Positions 706-13,436 of a DNA stretch of 13,436 nt are shown here, piece after piece; within the stretch, counting starts at the first letter, position 1; every line of letters begins with the position of its first letter. Below the pieces are notes generated by a model that was given only the letters and a program-made list of their open reading frames with translations, was not told the DNA's origin and made no database searches. Location: assembly GCA_043813365.1 (NCBI GenBank), contig JBDRLB010000027.1, forward strand, positions 1-13,436, in the 5' to 3' direction. A program made the position numbers and the translations under genes. The stretch comes from Candidatus Micrarchaeota archaeon. Its GTDB lineage: Archaea > Micrarchaeota > Micrarchaeia > Norongarragalinales > SBBD01.

Positions 706-1807
706 ACTTGTCTAGCGTTTTCCTTGCAGCTTCGCGTTTCCGCTGGTGCTCCTTCATGAACGCTTGGAGCTTTTCTATTAGGATGAGCTTTAGCTCGCCC
801 GAGAGCAGCTTCCCGGATTTATACTCATCGTGAATTTTTTTCAGCTTCGCATCATCCTCCTCGAAGAATGTGAGCCATTGGTAGGAAATGTCGATGTCGG
901 GATTGCCGCCGTGCTTGCGATGCTCCTCAATTGTATCCGCGCCGCCCGAGAATGCGTATCTTTTGACCTTTTTTTCGATTGTTTCCGGGGAGTCGGTGGT
1001 GTATATTGCAGTATCCGCCTCCGATGCGCTCATCTTCTTATTTGCAGAGAGGCCCGGAAGGAAGCGGCAGTGTATCGCGGCTGGTTTGAAATAACCCAAT
1101 TTCGGGAGTATGTCCCTGCTGACTCGGAAATGCGCATCCTGGTCAATTGCATGCGGGATGAGGCACGGGATGTTCTTCCCTTTTTTCACGCTGGGAAGGA
1201 AAGCGGGCACTGACTGCATCGAAGTGAAGAAAATCTCCCCCACATTCGAGGAGTCGGTGAAGCCGAAAACCGCCTTTGCAGTTGAGAATGTGAGCTTTTT
1301 GGATACTTTGAGCGCCTCCCTGTAAAGCGTCTTGGCATAATCTATGTCGGAGAAGATGAACGTCTTTCCGGGCTTGAAGCCCATTGCAATCACATCGAGC
1401 GCATTCTCGTAAGCGAGCTTGTTTGTCTCCTCCAAGGAAAGCGCATCCTTGAAGAGGAATTTCTCGTCATCCGTCATCTGGAAATAAAGCTCGACATCGA
1501 ATTTTTCCTGCAGCCATCTGGTGAGCATCCATGGGACAAGATGGCCTATATGCGTCTGCCCGGAAGGGCCCCTGCCGGTATAGAGGAAGAACTTGTTTCC
1601 CTTCTCGTACTCATCAAGAAGCCAGTTCATGTCTCGGTGCGAGAAGAAAACCTTCCTCCTGAGCAGATGGTGGAGCGTCCCCGTGTGCTTTTTTATGCGG
1701 GAGAGCAGCTTTTCATCTATATGCTCCGTGCCGAACTCCTTTACCAAACGTTCGTAATCAATTTCGCCCTCCACTTTCCAGGGAGTTACGATGAATTCCT
1801 TGGCCAT
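689..1807 (-). CDS. trpS: Tryptophan--tRNA ligase (archaeal/eukaryotic type)
   Basis: VTPW N-terminus, FFLYTGRGPS, HIGH motif (THIGH), QMTDDEKFL, AIDQD, KMSAS (KMSKS-like), AFSGG. Overlaps the convergent upstream gene by 17 nt. Confidence 0.97.
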   Translation of the reverse strand: MAKEFIVTPWKVEGEIDYERLVKEFGTEHIDEKLLSRIKKHTGTLHHLLRRKVFFSHRDMNWLLDEYEKGNKFFLYTGRGPSGQTHIGHLVPWMLTRWLQEKFDVELYFQMTDDEKFLFKDALSLEETNKLAYENALDVIAMGFKPGKTFIFSDIDYAKTLYREALKVSKKLTFSTAKAVFGFTDSSNVGEIFFTSMQSVPAFLPSVKKGKNIPCLIPHAIDQDAHFRVSRDILPKLGYFKPAAIHCRFLPGLSANKKMSASEADTAIYTTDSPETIEKKVKRYAFSGGADTIEEHRKHGGNPDIDISYQWLTFFEEDDAKLKKIHDEYKSGKLLSGELKLILIEKLQAFMKEHQRKREAARKTLDKFILRD

Positions 1808-1831
1808 GGCACTTTTTCCCCTCTAAAAACC

Positions 1832-1839
1832 TTTAAAAA
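1832..1839 (-). promoter_or_regulatory. Putative TATA box for trpS
   Basis: TTTTTAAA on the minus strand about 24 nt upstream of the trpS ATG, in the trpS/rps6e divergent intergenic region. Confidence 0.45.
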
Positions 1840-1941
1840 AGCTTTACTGCATTTACTATTGCTTATTCTTTCAGATGGCATGCTTTTAATTGCTATACTA
1901 ACGGGGAATAGGTCTGCGACTATCGCTTAAAGGGGATATGG

Positions 1942-2373
1942 ATGAAATTGGTAATAAACGACGTGAAGGCTGGCAAGAGCTACCAGAAGGAGATATCCAA
2001 GGAGAAGGAGGCATTGCTCTATGGGAAGAAGATCGCCGACCAGATTGACGGCGCATTCATCGCTGAACTGCCGGGTTATAAACTCGAGATACGCGGCGGC
2101 TCGGACAAGGATGGCTTTCCCATGAGGCCGGACGTGCCCGGCCAGAGGAGGGCGCGCTTGGTGCTTTCAAAGCCCCCTGGGATCACAATCAAGAGGAAGG
2201 GATTCCGGAAGATGAAAATGGTCATCGGGAATACGGTAACGGTTTCGATCAATCAGCTCAATATGAAAGTCATTGAGTACGGCCCGAAAGCGCTCGAGGA
2301 GCTGGGGCTGAAGCTCACTCCGAAGGACCAGAAGCCCAAGGAGGAAAAGAAAGCTGACAAGAAGAAAAGGTAA
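1942..2373 (+). CDS. rps6e: 30S ribosomal protein S6e (eS6)
   Basis: MKLVIND..GKSYQ, GYKLEIRGGSDKDGFPMRPDV and QLNMKVIEYG match eS6. Lys-rich tail. Confidence 0.96.
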   Translation: MKLVINDVKAGKSYQKEISKEKEALLYGKKIADQIDGAFIAELPGYKLEIRGGSDKDGFPMRPDVPGQRRARLVLSKPPGITIKRKGFRKMKMVIGNTVTVSINQLNMKVIEYGPKALEELGLKLTPKDQKPKEEKKADKKKR

Positions 2374-2406
2374 GGAGAGATTTAGTCGTGGAGAGACTGG
2401 ATTCAT

Positions 2407-3252
2407 TTGGACTGGAGTGGAATCGCATCCGAATTGGCTGAGCTGCACGATTTTTCCATTTATCTTGGCAATTACAATTACGCTAGCCTGCAAAAGCAGC
2501 TTGTGCAGGCGGATTTTGGCATCTCAGCAAGGAAGTGGGTATCGTTTTCAATTGCTGCTGCCGGAATGTTTTCAGCTTTCGCATCACTGATTACGCTCAT
2601 ATTGCAGATAAATGCCTATCTTGCATTTGAAGCCATGATCTTCTCTTTTTTCGGAGCGGCTTTGCTATTGCTTAAATTGCCATCCTATGTGAAAAAGAAG
2701 CGTGCGGAGGAGATTGAGGCCGAGTATTCAATTGCCTTGCGGGAGATTATTCTCGGGATGAGGATGGGGCAGCCCTTCGAGAGGATTATCGGGAATGTCG
2801 CAAGGGGGAATTACGGCAAATTGGGCAGGGAGTTTAGGAAGGCTTATTTGGAAATTGAAAACGGGGCGGAGGGCGTGAGGGGTGCGCTGGAAGGGATTGG
2901 AAAGAGAGTGGATTCGCAAATGGTGTCGAGGATAAACTCGCAGCTCATTTTTGTGTATGAGAACGGCACAAAGGGGTCGGGGCTGTCTAAATTGGCGGAA
3001 GAGATGATGCTTGTGCAGAAGATGAAAATGCGCGAGTATTCATCTAAAATGGCGTTCCTCGGGCTCCTGTTCATCGCAATAAGCTGCATCGTGCCCGCGC
3101 TTTTCGCGGCATATGTGATAATCGGCTCCTCCTTCCTTTCCCTCACAATAACGGAAGGGGACATTTTGGCAGCATACCTGATCATATTCCCTGCGGCTTC
3201 ACTTGCAGCGCTATTGTTTATTAAGGAAAAAAGTCCCGCAATATTGATTTAA
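2407..3252 (+). CDS. Type II secretion system F / TadC-like pilus membrane platform protein
   Basis: Two N-terminal TM helices, KKRAEEIEAEYSIALREIILGMRMGQPFE, YGKLGREFRKAYLEIENG, ALEGIGKRVDS and two C-terminal TM helices match the T2SSF/TadBC layout. TTG start is the only start after the in-frame TAG at 2383. Confidence 0.82.
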   Translation: MDWSGIASELAELHDFSIYLGNYNYASLQKQLVQADFGISARKWVSFSIAAAGMFSAFASLITLILQINAYLAFEAMIFSFFGAALLLLKLPSYVKKKRAEEIEAEYSIALREIILGMRMGQPFERIIGNVARGNYGKLGREFRKAYLEIENGAEGVRGALEGIGKRVDSQMVSRINSQLIFVYENGTKGSGLSKLAEEMMLVQKMKMREYSSKMAFLGLLFIAISCIVPALFAAYVIIGSSFLSLTITEGDILAAYLIIFPAASLAALLFIKEKSPAILI

Positions 3253-3380
3253 TGGGTCCAAATATAATCAGTTCTATTGTTTCGGGATGGGAAATAAGTA
3301 GCGGCGCAGTTAAGAGATAGGAAAAAAGCAAACTGCCACCTTCACCAGGCTATTTGCAACTCATTGCAACTCCCACAAAT

Positions 3381-3388
3381 AAAAAAAA
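3381..3388 (-). terminator. Oligo-T archaeal terminator
   Basis: T8 run on the minus strand directly after the stop codon of 3389..4504. Confidence 0.45.
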
Positions 3389-4504
3389 TTAATTCAGCGG
3401 CTGGTTTCCACAAGTAATGCTGGTTATGCAGCCGTTCTGGTCGTTTTGCGCATTCCAGCCCATGTTCGAGCTACGGCACTCGAGCGCCTTGCTGATTATC
3501 GCATCGGAAGGAATGCCACAATTTGGCGCCTGACGGAGATCCGCCAAGATCCTGTCTCTTTCATTCCTGCACGCATATTTGGTCACGCAATTCCTCTCGT
3601 CCCTGATTGGGTCCATTTGTCCGCCCTTTAGCCTGCAGGCGTCTTGCTCGGATTGCGGAGGCTGTGAAACTGGGGTGCAGGTTACCTTTTCAAAGCATTG
3701 CGGATAATAGACCGCCGAAGATTTCTCGTTTGAAACTTTGGTAAGCTTCACATCGAAACCGTTCGCGACCGTATAGGAAACGGTGAATGGAAGAGGCACT
3801 TTCTTGGTTATTTTCGCGATGCATGCATCCATTTCCGAGGGTCCCTGGCCTTGTTCCAACAAGGCGAATTTGGTGCAGGGGATTGTGAATTCACCCGTTT
3901 CGTCCCCTTTGATTATGGAGAGGTTGGCAAAACTGTTGCCGAATTGCACGTTCTTCAGTATTATGGGTGTGGTGCTCTTCCAGACATCATCCGTCATGAA
4001 GTTCCTCCCTACGGATGCGAACATGTCGTTCAGGGTAAGGAAGAAATCAAAATCCATATAGACGGATTTGGCATTGTCGAAGGCAAGATCGCTTTTTGGA
4101 GCGCCTTTGGTAACCGCCATGGACCCATCATCCTCATATACAGTTACCTTCGACCATGCGGAACTTTGTCCCGGCATGCTCTTATCTTCCGATGACTGCA
4201 TCACGCCCAAATATGCATTCCTGCCTCCGCAATCCTTCTTTTCATTAAGCCATAGGGTGAAAAACAGATTTGTCACTGGGCCTCCTTGTGGACCGCCACT
4301 CTGCTTGAATTCATACTCCAATTTCAGGGGCTGGAATGCTTCGGGGGTTGGGGAGGGAATTGTTGTCGGGGTTGCAGTAGCGATTTTTGTTGGAACCTGG
4401 GTTGGAACCGATGTGGGAACGGCAGTCGGAGCCGGCTGGGGTTGAGTGCATCCAAACAACAAAACAAGCGAAACAATCAGGACAAAAACCACTGCCTTAG
4501 TCAT
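3389..4504 (-). CDS. Putative lipoprotein with Pro/Thr linker and C-terminal 4-Cys repeats
   Basis: Signal MTKAVVFVLIVSLVLLFG|C (lipobox-like), P/T-rich linker, Cys-rich C-terminus. SD GGGTGA at 4509-4514 (minus strand). Confidence 0.8.
   Translation of the reverse strand: MTKAVVFVLIVSLVLLFGCTQPQPAPTAVPTSVPTQVPTKIATATPTTIPSPTPEAFQPLKLEYEFKQSGGPQGGPVTNLFFTLWLNEKKDCGGRNAYLGVMQSSEDKSMPGQSSAWSKVTVYEDDGSMAVTKGAPKSDLAFDNAKSVYMDFDFFLTLNDMFASVGRNFMTDDVWKSTTPIILKNVQFGNSFANLSIIKGDETGEFTIPCTKFALLEQGQGPSEMDACIAKITKKVPLPFTVSYTVANGFDVKLTKVSNEKSSAVYYPQCFEKVTCTPVSQPPQSEQDACRLKGGQMDPIRDERNCVTKYACRNERDRILADLRQAPNCGIPSDAIISKALECRSSNMGWNAQNDQNGCITSITCGNQPLN
3410..3679 (-). repeat. Two 37-aa four-cysteine protein repeats (3569-3679 and 3410-3520)
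   Basis: CTPVSQPPQSEQDACRLKGGQMDPIRDERNCVTKYAC and CGIPSDAIISKALECRSSNMGWNAQNDQNGCITSITC share the spacing C-x13-CR-x10-D-x3-C[VI]T-x3-C. Confidence 0.75.
4389..4436 (-). repeat. Imperfect 12-bp coding tandem repeat (PAPT/AVPT/SVPT/QVPT linker)
   Basis: Plus-strand units gttggaacctgg / gttggaaccgat / gtgggaacggca / gtcggagccggc. Confidence 0.6.
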
Positions 4505-4629
4505 ACACTCACCCGCATTGAATTCAAAGTAGTATTAAACGGTCAAATTAAAGCTTTGCGGTGGCTTTTTCGATCTACTGCCTTGCGCCACGGGGAAATT
4601 TGACGAAAGAGCGCGCGGCTTTTTTTAGC

Positions 4630-5814
4630 CTACTGCCTTGCGTCGCCGAGATTGAACTTAAGGGGCACGTAGCCCACTGCGCCGGTATCAAAAATAAGCT
4701 GCAACCCTATGGCTGCTTTCGGGACCTGGAACGGGATTTTTCCCCTTATTTTATCCCCCGCGGGCAGATTTCCCTCGATGCTCTGGCCGAAGATCATGTT
4801 TGCACCCAGATCCAAGGAATACGAGTAGCTTTCGGAATCCTTCACCTTGAATTGCATGCCGCGAACCGTTGCTGCTTCCTTTCCGGCATTTTCCACGGTT
4901 ATATCCGCAATCAGGAAAATATTCCCCTCGTTCGCCCTTGCTTGCATCCCCAGGGATCCATTAATTTGATCTGAAAAGGAAACGGAATTGAGCGTAACAC
5001 GTAAAGCTTTGGCCGAAGGGGTCGCCGCCGCCGGCCTTGGGGAACCGCCCGATGGCTTAATGTTTTGAGTTTCTGTGTCAGATAAATCAACCCTTGCGCC
5101 AACACCCGAAAAGTACCCCTCACTGATTTCCAGAAGAACCACTTCCGTATTCTCGGGCACTTCCACATAGCAGTTGGCGTAATCCGCGCTTAGGCCGGGC
5201 TCAATCCGCTCCCCGATCGACATGCCGCCCCTCAACTTGTCCTCGCAGCCGCCGACATCGAATACACGGCCGTTTTCGTCCCTCACCTTCAAGTTGGAAG
5301 CCCCGAATGAAACAGAACTCTTGCCCCTATTCTCAACAATTGCCTCAAAAATGTAAAAAACCGCGCCAGCACGGGCATTCTTTACCGTATTTCCTGCAAT
5401 TATCGAATCCGCCTTTACCGCGGAAGGGACGCTTATTTGCATGCTCCCGACCATGAAATTATCCCCGATTTTATATGGAGGGGTTTTATCGGTGACATTG
5501 GAATTCATCGAGCTGGAAAACTCCGCATAAGGGAACATGGCAACTGCCGCGGAGAGAAGTAAAATTGCGGAAATCACAATCCTAAGCCAGACGCTCAGGA
5601 TGAAATGGAACCGTTTCAGGAGAAAAACGTTGAATGTCGGGATGATCACGATCCCGGCAAGTAGCAGCAGCAGCCCGCCGACTGCCGAGCTGAACAGCAC
5701 GCTTACACCTGCGAGGATGTAAACCGAGCCGAATATGAATCCGAGTACCGAAAGGACCCCGATTTTGCGCACGGGTTTTTGCACCGGCAGAATTTCAAGG
5801 GCTTTCTTGGCCAT
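4630..5814 (-). CDS. Membrane-anchored protein with two tandem DUF4352-like (Ig-like) domains
   Basis: Likely start MAKKALEILP at 5814 (the longer ORF to 6147 overlaps the divergent gene). About 3 TM helices, then two related domains (FYIFEAIVENRGK..LKVRDENG..IEPG..VEVP and FLIADITVENAGK..FKVKDSES..LPAG..FQVP) separated by a P/A/S linker. Confidence 0.78.
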   Translation of the reverse strand: MAKKALEILPVQKPVRKIGVLSVLGFIFGSVYILAGVSVLFSSAVGGLLLLLAGIVIIPTFNVFLLKRFHFILSVWLRIVISAILLLSAAVAMFPYAEFSSSMNSNVTDKTPPYKIGDNFMVGSMQISVPSAVKADSIIAGNTVKNARAGAVFYIFEAIVENRGKSSVSFGASNLKVRDENGRVFDVGGCEDKLRGGMSIGERIEPGLSADYANCYVEVPENTEVVLLEISEGYFSGVGARVDLSDTETQNIKPSGGSPRPAAATPSAKALRVTLNSVSFSDQINGSLGMQARANEGNIFLIADITVENAGKEAATVRGMQFKVKDSESYSYSLDLGANMIFGQSIEGNLPAGDKIRGKIPFQVPKAAIGLQLIFDTGAVGYVPLKFNLGDARQ

Positions 5815-5926
5815 GACCGTCACTTTAGAGTATATCATTAAAGGGAATTTAAACCTATCAAAATCTTTTGAAGCGGGCATGCAAAGGCTTTTCAACAATT
5901 CAGCATTATTTTTTATCGGTGTTCTT

Positions 5927-7174
5927 ATGGGAATCATTCGCTGGCCTGCACTTGGGATGTTCATTATCCTTGCGATGGGCTGTGTAGGGCCATCGCCATC
6001 ACCTGCTCCGACGATGCCTGCATCAACGGCTACAGACCAAGCAAGAGTGACGCCCACATTGGCGGGCACGGTGCTGCCGGCCCCGACGGCAACGGAAATG
6101 CCCACGTTTACAATCCCAGTTGACCAGCAATGCATGGACGGTAGCAATTGCAGGCCTGCTCCTTCCCAGGCAGCTGTAAACCCGGCATCCCCAACAGTTC
6201 AGCAAGCGATAATTCCGGCTCCCGAAGCGCTCGCACTTGAAAATTACGACGGGAAATTCTTCACAATCAGGAAACCTGCTGGCTGGGAGATAGCAACAGG
6301 GGGCTCGTGCTCCACATTCTCGTTCGTTATGAAGGATAAAATGATGCCGCAGAGGCAGATATTCTACTTCGGCGAGATCGGCCCGGTATACCTGGATGAG
6401 AGCCAGAAACTGCTCGATAGGCAATACATGGATATGGGCGGCTTCCAGATTTTCTGGTATGAGATGCCGGTTGTAAAACCATTGACTCCGGAGAATTTCC
6501 TGGAAAGCGAATACCTGCTCATGAAAACGAGCCTGCTAAAGCAATTCATGGCGGATTTGCCGGAACTGAACGAGGTGGAAATTATTTACTCCGAATCGGC
6601 GAAATCACCTGTTGCAGGCGACACCAAATTGATGCGGGCGCTGTTCAAAACGCAGGGGGGTTTGGGGGAGGGGCAGTTCTTCCTCACTACAAGGGAAGTT
6701 TTGCCGCTGAGTGGGTTCGCAAGCGGGGGGATCGGCTATGGATTCACTTTCATCGGAATTGCAGCCGAAAAGAAGGAATTCAAGTATCTGGAAAAAACGC
6801 TTACTGAGAGCATCAATAGCTTCACAATGTCGCAGGAATACGTTTCAAATTGCCTGCAGCAGCAGCAAAAAACAACGGAAGGGATACTGAAGGCGGGGAA
6901 AACGCTTTCCGAAACCTCCGACATCATCATGTCCTCCTGGGAAAGCCGCAATAGGGCGGATGACATCATCTCGGAAAAGAGGAGTGATGCAATTCTTGGG
7001 AGGGAAAGGGTATACAATCCGGACACGGGCACCGTTTACGATGTAAATAACGGCTTTTACGACGATTACGATTCCGAACGCCAGAATTTCGACATGAGCA
7101 GATTGGAAATGCTGCCGGAGAACGATTGGAACCTTTGGAACGCTCCGGCAGAGGATGGGAGCAAAATCCATTAG
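5927..7174 (+). CDS. Putative lipoprotein with Pro/Thr/Ala-rich linker, function unknown
   Basis: Likely start MGIIRWPALGMFIILAMG|C at 5927 with GGTG just upstream. Long P/T/A linker, then a globular domain beginning YDGKFFTIRKPAGWEI and an acidic C-terminus. Start is uncertain (5879 is possible). Confidence 0.75.
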   Translation: MGIIRWPALGMFIILAMGCVGPSPSPAPTMPASTATDQARVTPTLAGTVLPAPTATEMPTFTIPVDQQCMDGSNCRPAPSQAAVNPASPTVQQAIIPAPEALALENYDGKFFTIRKPAGWEIATGGSCSTFSFVMKDKMMPQRQIFYFGEIGPVYLDESQKLLDRQYMDMGGFQIFWYEMPVVKPLTPENFLESEYLLMKTSLLKQFMADLPELNEVEIIYSESAKSPVAGDTKLMRALFKTQGGLGEGQFFLTTREVLPLSGFASGGIGYGFTFIGIAAEKKEFKYLEKTLTESINSFTMSQEYVSNCLQQQQKTTEGILKAGKTLSETSDIIMSSWESRNRADDIISEKRSDAILGRERVYNPDTGTVYDVNNGFYDDYDSERQNFDMSRLEMLPENDWNLWNAPAEDGSKIH

Positions 7175-9474: not shown

Positions 9475-9903
9475 CTAAATGACAACGCTCCCACTCATGG
9501 TTGAGCATCCGCCTTGGGGAGTGCAGGAAGTGACCTTGAAATCGTAAGCGCCAGAGGGCCCGTTGAATGTCAGCGAATGGGATGTGACGTAATTGCTGTC
9601 ACGCAGGTTGCCCTGGGCGAGTCCGGCATATTGCAAGTAAGAATCGGCATTAATGTCGGTTTCCCACGTGACAAGGGCAGTGCCGAGTCCGGGAGCGGTA
9701 GGTAGCAGGTTGGATATTACCGGTGCCTTTCCGGGAATGGAAGCGAGCACATCGCCCAAAGTCGTCGTCTGGTTTTCAATATTGCTCTGGCTGGTGCTGA
9801 AAATATTCCCCCTAGTCAGGATTAGCACAATTGCAACAAAAGCCAGCACTCCGCCGACCATGAGCATGTACTCGAGCGAAGTTTGTGCGCGCTTTTTTTC
9901 CAT
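9475..9903 (-). CDS. Class III signal peptide (pilin-like) protein with fibronectin type III-like domain
   Basis: MEKKRA|QTSLEYMLMVGGVLAFVAIVLIL has canonical Q+1/E+5. The C-terminal PVISNL..ALVTWETDINADSYLQY..HSLTF..YDFKVTSC is Fn3-like. TTATAAAT at 9925-9932 (minus) supports the 9903 start over 9957. Confidence 0.85.
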   Translation of the reverse strand: MEKKRAQTSLEYMLMVGGVLAFVAIVLILTRGNIFSTSQSNIENQTTTLGDVLASIPGKAPVISNLLPTAPGLGTALVTWETDINADSYLQYAGLAQGNLRDSNYVTSHSLTFNGPSGAYDFKVTSCTPQGGCSTMSGSVVI

Positions 9904-9924
9904 GGAATTGGGTAGGGATTCCTG

Positions 9925-9932
9925 ATTTATAA
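9925..9932 (-). promoter_or_regulatory. TATA box for the pilin-like gene
   Basis: TTATAAAT about 21 nt upstream of the ATG at 9903, inside the 72-nt gap after the lonB-N stop. Confidence 0.5.
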
Positions 9933-9975
9933 TCATCACAGTGAAGGGGAAATTCAATGGCTACTTCCGGGATGC

Positions 9976-11163
9976 TCAATTTGCGATGAATACCCTCATC
10001 CCCTTGCGCAGTTTCCTTGCGGTTTTTTCCGAAGGGTTTGAGATGTATGAATGTTCGGGCGTTGTAACAAGCCGGTTTTTGCCGATTTTAAGCTCTACGA
10101 CTTTACCCCCATATGGCCTGCGGTTGATTATGAGCAGTTTTGCGGCCTTCGCCGAATTCCCCTTCCTTCCCCGGACCCTCGCTTTTTCCTTTTTCGGGAG
10201 CACGATCGCCTCATAGCCGTCCTCGCGCCTTTCAACAGGGTACTTGCCGGAATAATGGTTCCAGATGTTTTCAAGCGCCATGTTCTCCCCGTTAATCTCA
10301 ACTTTCGTTTTACCATCGAATGACTGGAACGGGTCGTGCTTCACATCGCCTAAAAGCGCTCCGGCTCTGGAGCCGGTCGCGTCCACAAAAGGGGCCTTTT
10401 TCTTGCCGGAATTATCAACAATCAGCTTGAAGCTCTCGCCCTGCTCGAACATCCTTCCCCTTCCCAATTGCATAGCGAAAATCATCGCAGCGCCCATCAT
10501 GAAAGTCCCTATTAGAAGCGCGGCAACTATGTTCACGGGAAAATATTTCGGCAGCACGTAAAGCCCTATCAGGAGGGAGAGCATCATGAAACCGATCATC
10601 ATGAAATTCGAGTTGCCGGCAGTCATGCGCGCTTCCATTCTTTCCGAACCAACCAGCTTCCTTCCTTCCCCGGCCTTCACGGATTTCACTTTGGGCATGT
10701 TGTCATCCTCCTTGTTTGCAATGACGAGGATGTCCTCTAGTTCCTGGATGGGTATGAGCTCTGCCATGGCCTGCGCAAGCATGCTCTTGCCGGTTCCGGG
10801 AGTGCCTACCAGAAGCACATTGCGTTTTTGAGTAGCCGCTTTCTTGATGACCTCTATTCCCCTTTCCTGACCGATCACCTGATCAATGAGCTGGTCGGAT
10901 ACGAGCACATCTGCGGTCGTGTTTATTTCCTCTAGGCTCTTGATCTGCCCTATGCGTTTGGCATTCTTGTTCGTCGGTGCGTTGAATTTTTTTTCTGCGG
11001 ATTTGCCGATTGTTGCGTTCGAAATGGGCTGTGCGGATTGCTTAGCAGCAGGCGTTTTCAGCATGGCAATGTTCTTCGCAGCCCTGGCGGCCCTTGGCGA
11101 ACCCATTCTTCCGGCTGTTGCATAAGCGTAGGCTGCCTTCCTTTTACGCATCCTCTTCCTCAT
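9976..11163 (-). CDS. lonB: Archaeal Lon protease LonB, N-terminal half only, fused to an N-terminal intein fragment (putative split gene)
   Basis: TTADV..LIDQVIGQE, Walker A GTPGTGKS (10783-10806), two TM helices and PFVDATGSRAGALLGDVKHDPFQ. Walker B and the Ser-Lys protease domain are absent. Start is uncertain (11187, 11163 or 11064). Confidence 0.9.
   Translation of the reverse strand: MRKRMRKRKAAYAYATAGRMGSPRAARAAKNIAMLKTPAAKQSAQPISNATIGKSAEKKFNAPTNKNAKRIGQIKSLEEINTTADVLVSDQLIDQVIGQERGIEVIKKAATQKRNVLLVGTPGTGKSMLAQAMAELIPIQELEDILVIANKEDDNMPKVKSVKAGEGRKLVGSERMEARMTAGNSNFMMIGFMMLSLLIGLYVLPKYFPVNIVAALLIGTFMMGAAMIFAMQLGRGRMFEQGESFKLIVDNSGKKKAPFVDATGSRAGALLGDVKHDPFQSFDGKTKVEINGENMALENIWNHYSGKYPVERREDGYEAIVLPKKEKARVRGRKGNSAKAAKLLIINRRPYGGKVVELKIGKNRLVTTPEHSYISNPSEKTARKLRKGMRVFIAN
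9979..10323 (-). mobile_element. Putative naturally split intein, N-fragment (IntN, 115 aa, Ser1)
   Basis: Begins right after HDPFQ with block A-like SFDGKTKVEI, has block B LVTTPEH (TxxH) and a KLRKGMRV strand, then TGA. No endonuclease, block F or block G, and no Lon C-extein follows in any frame before the next gene. Confidence 0.82.
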
Positions 11164-11255
11164 AATCAGACCAATTACCATTGTCATTCGGGGAATTAAA
11201 AAGCGTTTGGTTTTTGTACTGCCAGAAGCACAGGTTTGCTCCCTTCAACTCAGCG

Positions 11256-11293
11256 TATAAAAACCCTTTTTCCCTAATGTATGCCTCCGGTGA
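11256..11293 (+). promoter_or_regulatory. TATA box and Shine-Dalgarno for rtcB
   Basis: TATAAAAA at 11256-11263 and GGTGA at 11289-11293 ahead of the ATG at 11299. Confidence 0.55.
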
Positions 11294-11298
11294 TGCTT

Positions 11299-13436
11299 AT
11301 GGTTTTCAAGGAATACAAAACAGCTATTTATGAGACTGGAATCGAGGGCGCGATGAAGGTGCCGGTTCGCGCAGTCTCAACAAGGGAAATGCTGGATAAG
11401 ATGATGACAGACCGCACATTGGGGCAGGCGAAGAACGTGGCAAGCCTCCCGGGAATTTTGGAGGCGAGCTATGTGATGCCGGATGGGCATGAGGGGTATG
11501 GTTTCCCAATTGGGGGCGTTGCTGCCTTTGACCCGGACGAGGGAATCGTTTCACCCGGAGGAGTCGGGTATGACATAAATTGCCTAGCTGAAGGTACCAA
11601 AGTCAGGCATGCATTGGGATTCCATCTGCCTATCGAGGAATATAAGCGTTTTTTCCACAACTTCGACCAGTCCGGCTCTTATGAGATAAGTATAACCGGG
11701 ATGGGGATAAGTGTTCCCTCGCTTGACACGAGTTTGGGAAAGATCGGGAATAAGCGCTTGCTTGCATACATGGAAAAGAAAGCGGATAAGAGAATGCTTA
11801 AAATCCGTTCGAAAAATGGCTTTGAAATTATTTGCTCCGAGGATCACCCATTGCTGGCGAGGAATGGCATGTTGAATTCAGGGAGCTTTAAAATTGGGGA
11901 TGCGATAGGTGTAAAATATTTTGAAGGCACCCCGCTGGATGGGAAACTGGAATATGAAAAAGGCATCCTTGTAAAAATACTGGGATATCTATTCGGGGAT
12001 GGAACGCTGACTGTTTCCGGGAAAAAAGCGAGGGTAATTGCCTTCGGGAAGGAAACGGATCTGCTCGGCATGCAATCTGACCTTAAAAGCATCGGTATAA
12101 AATCCAGCTATTTCCTCAGGCAACGGAAAGGCAAAATCACATCGCAATATGGCACACGCGAATTCTACTCAAAGAGTGGGGAGCTGCACGTTTATTCCCA
12201 GGGGTTTGCAGAAAAGCTTATCGGATTAGGGATGCCTATCGGTAACAAGTCAGTGGGCAATTACGGAGTCCCAGAATGGATCATGGAAGCGCCAAAATGG
12301 GTCAAACGGCTGTTTTTGGGGGGATTTTTTGGCGCAGAGCTCTCTTCCCCGGCAACACATTCAAAAACCGGATTCTATTCGCCCATAATTTCGCAAAACA
12401 AGAATGAGGCAGCAATAGAATCGGGGCGCATTTTCCTCGGCCAGATTTTTCAGCTGCTGGCTGATTTCGGGATTGAGTGCACCAAAATCGCCCAGAGGGA
12501 GGAATTCCATAACAGGGCGGGAAAAACATGCAGGCTGAGGCTGGAAATCTCGGCGGATGAAAACAACCTGCTTAGGCTCTACCGGCTCGTCGGATTCGAA
12601 TACAACCAAAAAAGGCAGGGGCTTGCGGAAATTGCGTGCGCATACATAATTGGAAAGAAAAATGCGCAGAGGATGAGATCGGAAATATCGGCCAAAGTGA
12701 AGGCGTTCAAAATGAAAGGGTTCTCGCTTAAGGAGGCTCAAAAGCTACTTGTTGGCCCAGCGTCCAATCCGCGCTTTATTGAGAGGGCATATTACGAAGG
12801 GGTAGAGCCGAGAATAAACCTCGATCATATTTCTTTCGAAAAATATTCTGAGAGCGCATCAAAGGATTTGGACAAATATGGCTGCCTTTATGATGAAATA
12901 GCTGAAATCCAAGAACTCCCTTATGAAGGGAAAGTGTATGATTTCACAGTAGCGGAAACGCACAATTTCATTGCAAACGGCATTGTGGTTTCGAATTGTG
13001 GCGTCCGGCTCATCAGGACAAATTTGATGGAGAAGGATGTTAAGCCGAAATTGAAGCAGCTGATCAATTCGCTGTATGACAACGTGCCTTCGGGAGTGGG
13101 GAGCAAGAGCAAGGTGAGGCTGAACCCGCAGCAGTTGGAGGAGGCGGTTACGGATGGATTGGATTGGTCGCTGAAAAACGGGTATGCGACGCAGAAGGAT
13201 TTGGAGCATTGCGAGGAGAACGGCCATTTTGCCGAGAGCGACTATTCGAAAGTGTCCGACATGGCAAAGAAGAGGGGCGGGCCGCAGCTTGGAACATTGG
13301 GTGCGGGAAACCATTTCATGGAAGTGCAGAAAGTGGAGAAAATTTTCGACCCGGAAATTGCGAAGGCATTCGGGATTAAGGAGGAGGGGCAGATTACGGT
13401 GATGGTGCATTCCGGAAGCAGGGGATACGGGCATCA
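11299..13436 (+). CDS. rtcB: RNA-splicing ligase RtcB, intein-containing, 3' end beyond the window
   Basis: Hand translation is open from 11299 to the window end: MKVPVR, KNVASLPGI, MPDGHEGYGFPIGGVAAFD, VSPGGVGYDIN|intein|CGVRLIRT, VPSGVGS, QLGTLGAGNHFMEVQ, MVHSGSRGYGH. Confidence 0.97.
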   Translation, partial: MVFKEYKTAIYETGIEGAMKVPVRAVSTREMLDKMMTDRTLGQAKNVASLPGILEASYVMPDGHEGYGFPIGGVAAFDPDEGIVSPGGVGYDINCLAEGTKVRHALGFHLPIEEYKRFFHNFDQSGSYEISITGMGISVPSLDTSLGKIGNKRLLAYMEKKADKRMLKIRSKNGFEIICSEDHPLLARNGMLNSGSFKIGDAIGVKYFEGTPLDGKLEYEKGILVKILGYLFGDGTLTVSGKKARVIAFGKETDLLGMQSDLKSIGIKSSYFLRQRKGKITSQYGTREFYSKSGELHVYSQGFAEKLIGLGMPIGNKSVGNYGVPEWIMEAPKWVKRLFLGGFFGAELSSPATHSKTGFYSPIISQNKNEAAIESGRIFLGQIFQLLADFGIECTKIAQREEFHNRAGKTCRLRLEISADENNLLRLYRLVGFEYNQKRQGLAEIACAYIIGKKNAQRMRSEISAKVKAFKMKGFSLKEAQKLLVGPASNPRFIERAYYEGVEPRINLDHISFEKYSESASKDLDKYGCLYDEIAEIQELPYEGKVYDFTVAETHNFIANGIVVSNCGVRLIRTNLMEKDVKPKLKQLINSLYDNVPSGVGSKSKVRLNPQQLEEAVTDGLDWSLKNGYATQKDLEHCEENGHFAESDYSKVSDMAKKRGGPQLGTLGAGNHFMEVQKVEKIFDPEIAKAFGIKEEGQITVMVHSGSRGYGH
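11581..12996 (+). mobile_element. RtcB intein with LAGLIDADG homing endonuclease (472 aa)
   Basis: Block A CLAEGTKV, block B CSEDHP, block C ILGYLFGDG (11977-12003), block E FLGGFFGAEL (12313-12342), block F KVYDFTV, block G HNFIANGIVVSN followed by Cys+1. Removing it restores GYDIN-CGVR. Confidence 0.95.

Follow-up and report, generated by a model that had tools for sequence, protein, structure and literature searches.

How does an archaeon make a complete LonB protease from a lonB gene that stops within an intein, before the Walker B motif has been encoded? The question is raised by a minus-strand gene on contig C27 of a Candidatus Micrarchaeota genome (GenBank assembly GCA_043813365.1). 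Candidatus Micrarchaeota is a DPANN lineage. The whole of this contig (JBDRLB010000027.1; 13,436 bp) was analysed and is called the window here. The genome is a 1.34-Mb bin of 78 contigs, with 88.6% completeness and 3% contamination. We found that lonB of this archaeon consists of two unlinked genes, and we consider it highly probable (about 0.88) that their products are joined after translation by a naturally split, cysteine-free intein of class 1 type. Since there are two genes, one ending and the other beginning with half an intein, full LonB is most likely stitched together post-translationally. This had been proposed in an initial annotation made from the letters of the window.

Results

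Two complementary parts of LonB on separate contigs

The minus-strand open reading frame (ORF) 9976-11187 encodes 403 amino acids (aa), or 395 aa if translation starts at the ATG at 11163. The latter is probably the start codon rather than the upstream ATG at 11187, because 395 aa equals the length of the identical database protein P0006 and a TATA-like element (gctttttaatt, at about 11194-11204) lies ~35 nt upstream. Residues 88-290 match positions 4-197 of the 608 positions of TIGR00764, the NCBIfam model of LonB, with an E-value of 2.1e-60. The frame then reads ...ALLGDVKHDPFQ and continues for 115 residues, which start with SFDG, include TTPEH, end with FIAN and are followed by the stop codon. 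We call this product the N-half, its LonB part the N-extein and its 115-aa tail the intein N-fragment (IntN). The initial annotation had described this run from LonB into an intein N-terminal splicing region, and every detail of it that can be checked was correct. It had also stated that the 72 nt after the stop hold the TATA box of the next gene and no LonB continuation. The TATA-like element is there, and a genome-wide search with the LonB model found no continuation anywhere in the window; the C-terminal part of LonB lies solely on contig C66.

The gene on C66 was found by searching the whole genome with the LonB and Lon_C profiles, and it has the form that had been predicted, that is, a separate ORF in which Met and an intein C-fragment (IntC) lead directly into SGG[LM]xTP. 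Its product, the C-half, starts with Met and an IntC of 44 or 48 aa, depending on the choice of Met, that contains VYNITTDTGN...VLVHN. The C-extein follows with SGGLGTPPHL...KGVLYIDE. The C-half matches positions 194-607 of TIGR00764 with 660 bits (cut-off, 516.6) and includes both the LonB AAA lid and the S16 protease domain (Lon_C). The initial annotation had proposed a membrane half and a soluble half. Kyte-Doolittle averages over 19 residues exceed 1.6 solely at residues 193-242 of the N-half, in a region with room for two membrane helices, and nowhere in the C-half.

The two halves are complementary. They cover positions 4-197 and 194-607 of the LonB model and overlap at the junction only, where intein-free relatives (n = 5) run HDPFQSGGLGTP or HDPYQTGGLGTP uninterrupted. 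Archaeal LonB combines an S16 Ser-Lys protease domain with an AAA+ module into which a membrane segment is inserted between Walker A and Walker B; this make-up is found only when both halves are combined. Because Walker A and Walker B are on different halves, neither half has a complete ATPase site.

Both genes lie inside their contigs, among unrelated neighbours and each with a TATA-like element. In the C-half gene this element (ttttatat) is located ~39 nt upstream of the first ATG, and the upstream neighbour is an unrelated ORF of 1111 aa. Read coverage across 9900-10050, which the initial annotation had suggested as a check, was obtained in part. The support consists of Logan contigs of four DNA runs, which are short, low-depth pieces over the N-half region. 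The stop codon falls within one of them (9942-10229), which shows no differences, and 9926-9942 is left unbridged; these data are neutral for the assembly.

Intein features of the two fragments

A profile built from IntN of the window and 14 orthologues matched the solved inteins 2jmz (E 5.6e-9), 4o1s (E 0.0018) and 6rpp (E 0.0023). The 115-aa tail is thus a genuine intein N-fragment, and its likeness to inteins is not due to chance. IntN alone showed a weak match to the intein part of the IF-2 model of NCBIfam (E 0.0028). IntC alone scored 15.8 against TIGR01443, the intein C-terminal model (cut-off, 15.6), and matched the intein part of the intein-containing IF-2 model with an E-value of 6.8e-9; its score against Pfam PF14890 was 20.4, which is below the cut-off of 35.8. 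With a profile of IntC, the match to the NrdJ-1 split intein (8ubs) had an E-value of 4e-4, and a weak one was obtained to chain 5oxx_B of Nanoarchaeum NEQ528 (E 0.18).

Position 1 of IntN is Ser in 14 of the 15 aligned sequences and Thr in the other. Split N-halves outside this alignment also have Ser first, except for one Cys (genome G043), and the endonuclease-bearing N-half of genome G048 has Thr. Block F (YN.TT.TGN), the terminal Asn and the +1 Ser do not vary among the 13 aligned IntC sequences, nine of which keep the penultimate His of block G. The fragments thus show the features of class 1 inteins: a nucleophile at position 1, T-x-x-H in block B, blocks F and G with the terminal Asn, and Ser at +1. 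Two traits stand out as unusual: cysteine is absent from both fragments throughout the family, and both are net basic. Net charges are +14 to +18 for IntN; those for IntC are +1 to +3 in the genus and +1 to +4 in the family. A strongly basic stretch is located between blocks A and B of IntN, both in the window (within 9979-10323) and in the orthologues.

Structure prediction of the IntN-IntC complex gave a score of 0.86 (median of 3 runs), and the best of 3 controls scored 0.00. The mark used for such predictions is reached by 116 of 157 solved complexes and by 2 of 215 mismatched pairs. The runs agreed in at least 89% of their contacts, and the predicted local distance difference test (pLDDT) value of the partner was at least 72. 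The predicted complex would support association of the fragments, but the pass may merely show likeness to split-intein complexes, which have already been solved.

Conservation of the split and purifying selection

Relatives were searched in all 67 species genomes of the order and in 401 genomes sampled from the phylum. An N-half of the split type, which runs through IntN and then stops (open frames of 325-502 aa), is present in 26 of the 67 genomes and in all 10 genomes of the window's family. A C-half starting with IntC was found in 25 of the 67, both halves in 23, and either or both in 28. Genomes G003, G004 and G052 have the N-half only and G041 the C-half only; all four are incomplete assemblies. 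Junctions could be read for 25 N-halves and 23 C-halves, and in every C-half read a Met occurs 33-50 aa ahead of an HN/S-type junction. Most IntN are 111-138 aa long and most IntC 33-50 aa. In three genomes both halves are on one contig and far apart: ~89 kb and on opposite strands in G006, ~28 kb in G031 and ~21 kb in G027. Outside the order, all five genomes of family f30 in the phylum sample have the split N-half, with C-halves on other contigs. The split is shared by relatives, in which the initial annotation had suggested looking for it.

Within the genus, the ratio of nonsynonymous to synonymous change (pN/pS) is 0.32 for IntN, 0.34 for IntC, 0.18 for the N-extein and 0.13 for the C-extein. 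These values were obtained at saturated synonymous sites (pS 0.7-0.8), with nonsynonymous change far from saturation. Both intein fragments are under purifying selection.

Genome G030 has two N-half pieces and two C-halves (contigs C28, C47 and C41), which are 65-67% identical to the query. They represent either two copies or two strains binned together (contamination, 2%).

Contiguous and intermediate forms

Several relatives carry the intein in other states. Contiguous inteins of ~500 aa with an endonuclease-like insert were found in several f19 genomes and in G020, where the frame is contiguous over 1190 aa, and contiguous mini-inteins of ~155-175 aa in G033, G327 and G256. In G048 (locus L057, contig C38), the N-half ORF 1118-3235 runs through IntN and the whole endonuclease-like insert and then stops, and an IntC-LonB-C ORF (3178-4662) comes next in an overlapping frame; the gene is either broken behind the insert or frameshifted. 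In G019, the N-half, a free-standing frame of 347 codons and the C-half are all on one strand, and the free-standing ORF is 35% identical to the G020 insert over 322 aa (E 2e-51). In G038, the halves are adjacent, and the 611-bp gap between them holds what by eye is an endonuclease remnant like the end of the G019 ORF. In the window's family the halves are fully dispersed, and in the window's genome the endonuclease gene is gone. Pfam gave no match to the free-standing ORF of G019 at E ≤ 5, and LAGLIDADG_3 matched the G020 insert merely at E 0.12. The inserts are therefore named endonuclease-like, a name that rests on the homology between the G019 ORF and the G020 insert and on LAGLIDADG-like motifs recognized by eye.

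A tree of IntN (41 rows, 119 columns) consists of two groups with 97/92 support. One clade of 30 contains every canonical split form together with G033 and G019, and the other, of 11, contains the remaining contiguous inteins (endonuclease-bearing ones and two mini-inteins) and G048. The N-extein tree follows taxonomy, unlike the IntN tree, in which IntN of the genus groups with one f11 genus, away from the rest of its own family. This conflict may be due either to repeated fracturing or to movement of the intein before it was split. On the N-extein tree (30 split and 13 whole rows), the state changes between split and whole at least five times, a rough figure because all fetched split genes were included and few whole ones. 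It is most likely that a contiguous intein with a homing-endonuclease insert at the known LonB site passed through the stage of a 'fractured gene' and that the halves were then dispersed.

A second, unrelated intein lineage, with Cys at position 1 (CIPxG... start), occupies the same LonB site at loci L047 (G025) and L058 (G066) of the same order. LonB inteins similar to it carry the labels Diapherotrites, Woesearchaeota and Nanoarchaeota.

Other Lon-like genes and neighbouring genes

With the LonB and Lon_C models no second full LonB was found in the genome assembly, which is 88.6% complete. The remaining LonB-like AAA gene (C42:17444-18937, plus strand; ~490 aa) is intein-free and has neither a membrane region nor a protease domain. 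In this paralogue a zinc-ribbon-like, Cys-rich insert (CxxC...CxxC) replaces the membrane helices. A weaker second LonB match, mostly with frames of about 400-550 aa (a few are longer or truncated), is found in nearly all of the 40 relatives searched. The genome also encodes five proteins in which a membrane-anchored Lon S16 protease domain stands alone, with no ATPase domain (frames of 214-654 aa, on contigs C58, C75, C74, C47 and C59). An intact second lonB was rejected as a candidate, because only the AAA paralogue and these five proteins turned up in the incomplete assembly.

Features of the two loci are listed in Table 1. The divergent neighbour of the N-half gene encodes the RtcB tRNA ligase (11281-13434, plus strand) and runs off the end of the contig. 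It is interrupted by a large contiguous intein (Pfam Intein_splicing at residues 141-572), after which RtcB resumes at residues 565-718. Thus, with the RtcB intein beside the LonB N-half, the contig carries two adjacent intein-bearing genes, one cis and one split. Elsewhere in the window, two long ORFs overlap on opposite strands (4630-6147, minus; 5735-7174, plus). Because a family match (DUF4352) was obtained for the minus-strand ORF only, the plus-strand ORF of 479 aa may be spurious or novel.

Table 1. Positions of the features at the two lonB loci (window numbering unless a contig is given)
Feature	Position	Strand	Basis or remark
LonB N-half gene (N-extein + IntN)	9976..11163	-	ORF call, TIGR00764 match and identical database protein
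N-extein: basic N-terminal extension, then first part of AAA+ module, ending ...HDPFQ	10324..11163	-	Frame and LonB model match
Walker A motif GTPGTGKS	10783..10806	-	Read from sequence; P-loop Pfam matches centred here
Hydrophobic region (residues 193-242 of the 403-aa frame), room for two membrane helices	10462..10611	-	Kyte-Doolittle
IntN (115 aa; begins with Ser1; cysteine-free; net charge +14)	9979..10323	-	
Intein block B TTPEH	10051..10065	-	T-x-x-H kept in 15/15 aligned IntN (T96, E98 and H99 invariant, alignment numbering)
Stop codon TGA closing IntN, at the canonical split / endonuclease-insertion position	9976..9978	-	
Intergenic spacer, 72 nt, with TATA-like gattataaat of the next gene	9904..9975	-	
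Pilin-like gene, class III signal peptide, ATG at 9903	9475-9903	-	Next gene after N-half
LonB C-half gene (IntC + C-extein), 469 aa	G000:C66:519-1928	-	LonB / Lon_C profile search of whole genome

Discussion

The two genes, the exact complementarity of their products, the intein motifs, the conservation across species and the purifying selection were observed directly. From these we infer that the fragments associate in the cell and that the halves are covalently spliced. The product of the first gene, composed of the basic N-terminus, Walker A, two membrane helices, ...HDPFQ and the 115-aa IntN, would be anchored in the membrane, and that of the second gene, composed of the 44-48-aa IntC, SGGLGTPP, Walker B, the AAA lid and the S16 Ser-Lys protease domain, would be soluble. 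IntN and IntC would associate to form one HINT fold, in which Ser1 would initiate an N-O acyl shift. The N-extein would next pass to the +1 Ser of the C-extein, and cyclisation of the terminal Asn would release the intein. The expected outcome is a normal LonB at the membrane, with the same HDPFQ-SGG junction as in intein-free relatives.

Several observations weigh against this proposal. No match to IntN alone was found in Pfam at E ≤ 10, and IntC scanned within the whole C-half scores under the curated cut-offs. The penultimate His is replaced in four of the 13 aligned IntC sequences (by Ser in two, by Arg in one and by Lys in one). Both fragments are net basic as judged from whole-fragment charges. 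In two of the six genomes of the genus (G003 and G004, each about 90% complete) no C-half was found. Moreover, since the window's genome is an incomplete bin of 78 contigs with some contamination, a second lonB may lie on unassembled DNA.

The replaced His would also suit halves that assemble non-covalently, with the intein parts serving as a dimerisation module of a two-chain LonB, and the complex prediction speaks for association, not for chemistry. A ribonucleotide reductase is reportedly made in fragments that are brought together by interaction domains of mobile-element origin (PMC3045599). However, all residues of the chemistry (Ser, Thr or Cys at position 1, Thr and His of block B, and the terminal Asn) are kept over deep divergence, and without splicing the AAA+ fold would have to accommodate ~160 intein residues between its two Walker motifs. 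We therefore regard a two-chain LonB of this kind as improbable. A further explanation is that each half has taken on a function of its own, one as a membrane AAA fragment and the other as a soluble protease, and can do without its partner. Modular Lon parts do exist in this lineage, since it keeps the protease-less LonB-like AAA protein and the stand-alone membrane S16 proteins. However, Walker A is on one half and Walker B and the sensor and lid elements are on the other, both halves are present in 23 of the 26 genomes with an N-half, and selection would not have kept the intein fragments if the halves no longer had to be rejoined, which makes separate functions very improbable.

An artefact of assembly, frameshift or binning, or a decaying pseudogene accompanied by a normal lonB on unassembled DNA, would draw on the incompleteness of the bin and on the short, low-depth public contigs of the likely source run, which leave 9926-9942 unbridged. 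An assembly break or chimera at about 9976 is contradicted by the position of both halves inside contigs with unrelated neighbours and their own TATA-like elements, and by the recurrence of the same stop position and the same Met-IntC start in independent assemblies (26 N-halves and 25 C-halves among 67 genomes). Among these are G002, which is assembled in 7 contigs, and the genomes that carry N-half and C-half on a single contig. The initial annotation had further considered an intact lonB elsewhere with this copy decaying. The search of the genome turned up no further full LonB, and a pN/pS of ~0.3 at saturated synonymous sites excludes decay of the intein parts. Such an origin of the split is thus extremely improbable. 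Recurrence, purifying selection and the split ATPase site led us to reject assembly artefact, pseudogene and independent functions, and trans-splicing of the two LonB halves is the explanation that we prefer.

Natural split inteins are few, and most are in replication or phage genes. Here, a membrane-anchored quality-control protease is divided between its Walker A and Walker B motifs, and the split is conserved over dozens of uncultured DPANN species. The initial annotation knew of no characterised split intein in a Lon protease, and we found no natural split intein in Lon or LonB in open-access papers and preprints (PMC and bioRxiv), a scope beyond which supplements, subscription journals and intein databases may hold one. 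In an excerpt of the ARMAN paper, intein trans-splice genes are stated to be missing in Mia14. The kind itself is not new, since split inteins, inteins in LonB and fractured genes had each been described before. One clade shows the full series, namely endonuclease-bearing contiguous intein, mini-intein, fractured gene, adjacent halves with a remnant, and dispersed halves, so the proposed route to split inteins can be tested by comparison. In public records the N-halves are named only 'ATP-binding protein' or 'hypothetical protein', so LonB would be miscounted in genome annotations and metabolic reconstructions of these archaea.

The at least five changes, the conflict between the intein and host trees and the fixation in whole families of Micrarchaeota may hint that the split is a state that selection favours and that has recurred, rather than a single accident; we hold this idea to be doubtful. 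If selection does maintain the split, it may provide a post-translational checkpoint, in which the ATPase site and the tethered protease form only when the products meet at the membrane. Assembly of LonB may depend on this meeting, as we hypothesize, and it is a matter of speculation whether the split has a regulatory role. If the split is maintained in this way, the family would also offer a natural supply of cysteine-free split inteins whose association does not need the usual steering by opposite charges.

Comparison with known systems

The LonB proteins of Pyrococcus abyssi, P. yayanosii and Thermococcus nautili read HDPFQ/C...KN/SGGLGTP and contain contiguous inteins of 333-474 aa, which agrees with the placement of the Thermococcales insertion site at HDPFQ/SGG in the initial annotation. 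LonB is represented with 10 inteins in Euryarchaeota in the part of Novikova et al. 2016 (PMC4760082) that concerns it. The Thermococcales inteins share the host protein and the insertion point with the intein described here. However, they are encoded in a single gene, splice in cis and start with Cys, whereas here there are two genes, a Ser start and no cysteine or endonuclease part.

The PolB split intein of Nanoarchaeum equitans (NEQ068/NEQ528) is also a naturally split intein of a DPANN archaeon, and the halves of its host gene are at separate loci. Its host is a replicative polymerase and it is known from one species, whereas the host here is a membrane-anchored AAA+ protease and the intein occurs in 28 of the 67 genomes of the order and in all five sampled genomes of f30. 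The cyanobacterial DnaE split intein is bacterial, lies in a replication protein and has a Cys nucleophile. Its break at the endonuclease-insertion position, the dispersal of its halves in the genome and its conservation across a clade resemble the LonB case. In cyanobacterial and metagenomic split inteins the interacting strands are oppositely charged, according to excerpts from Dassa et al. 2009, whereas the LonB fragments are net basic as a whole; this contrast is only suggestive, because our figures are for whole fragments and theirs for interacting strands.

The 'fractured genes' of Dassa et al. 2009 have, as far as the excerpts describe them, exactly the layout of G019, that is, an N-half, a free-standing endonuclease-like ORF and a C-half. 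The window's genome departs from this layout: its two halves lie on separate contigs, and the N-half is not followed by an endonuclease ORF. Fragment lengths in the same source are 88-105 and 33-54 aa, which is close to the 111-138 aa of most IntN and the 33-50 aa of most IntC here. The fractured genes described there come from fragmentary ocean metagenome reads, are largely viral and interrupt other host genes; in the main text of the paper, no Lon host gene was found.

Comparable in predicted chemistry are the cysteine-less split inteins Aes123 PolB1 (CLm), LCGC14, PolB16 OarG and CL, from which the LonB split intein differs in host protein and lineage and in that its splicing is predicted. 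In excerpts from Humberg et al. 2026 (PMC13014065), cysteine-less split inteins are described as rare, with only four usable members, and as sought after by protein chemists. The LonB fragments share with them Ser at positions 1 and +1 and the absence of cysteine from either fragment.

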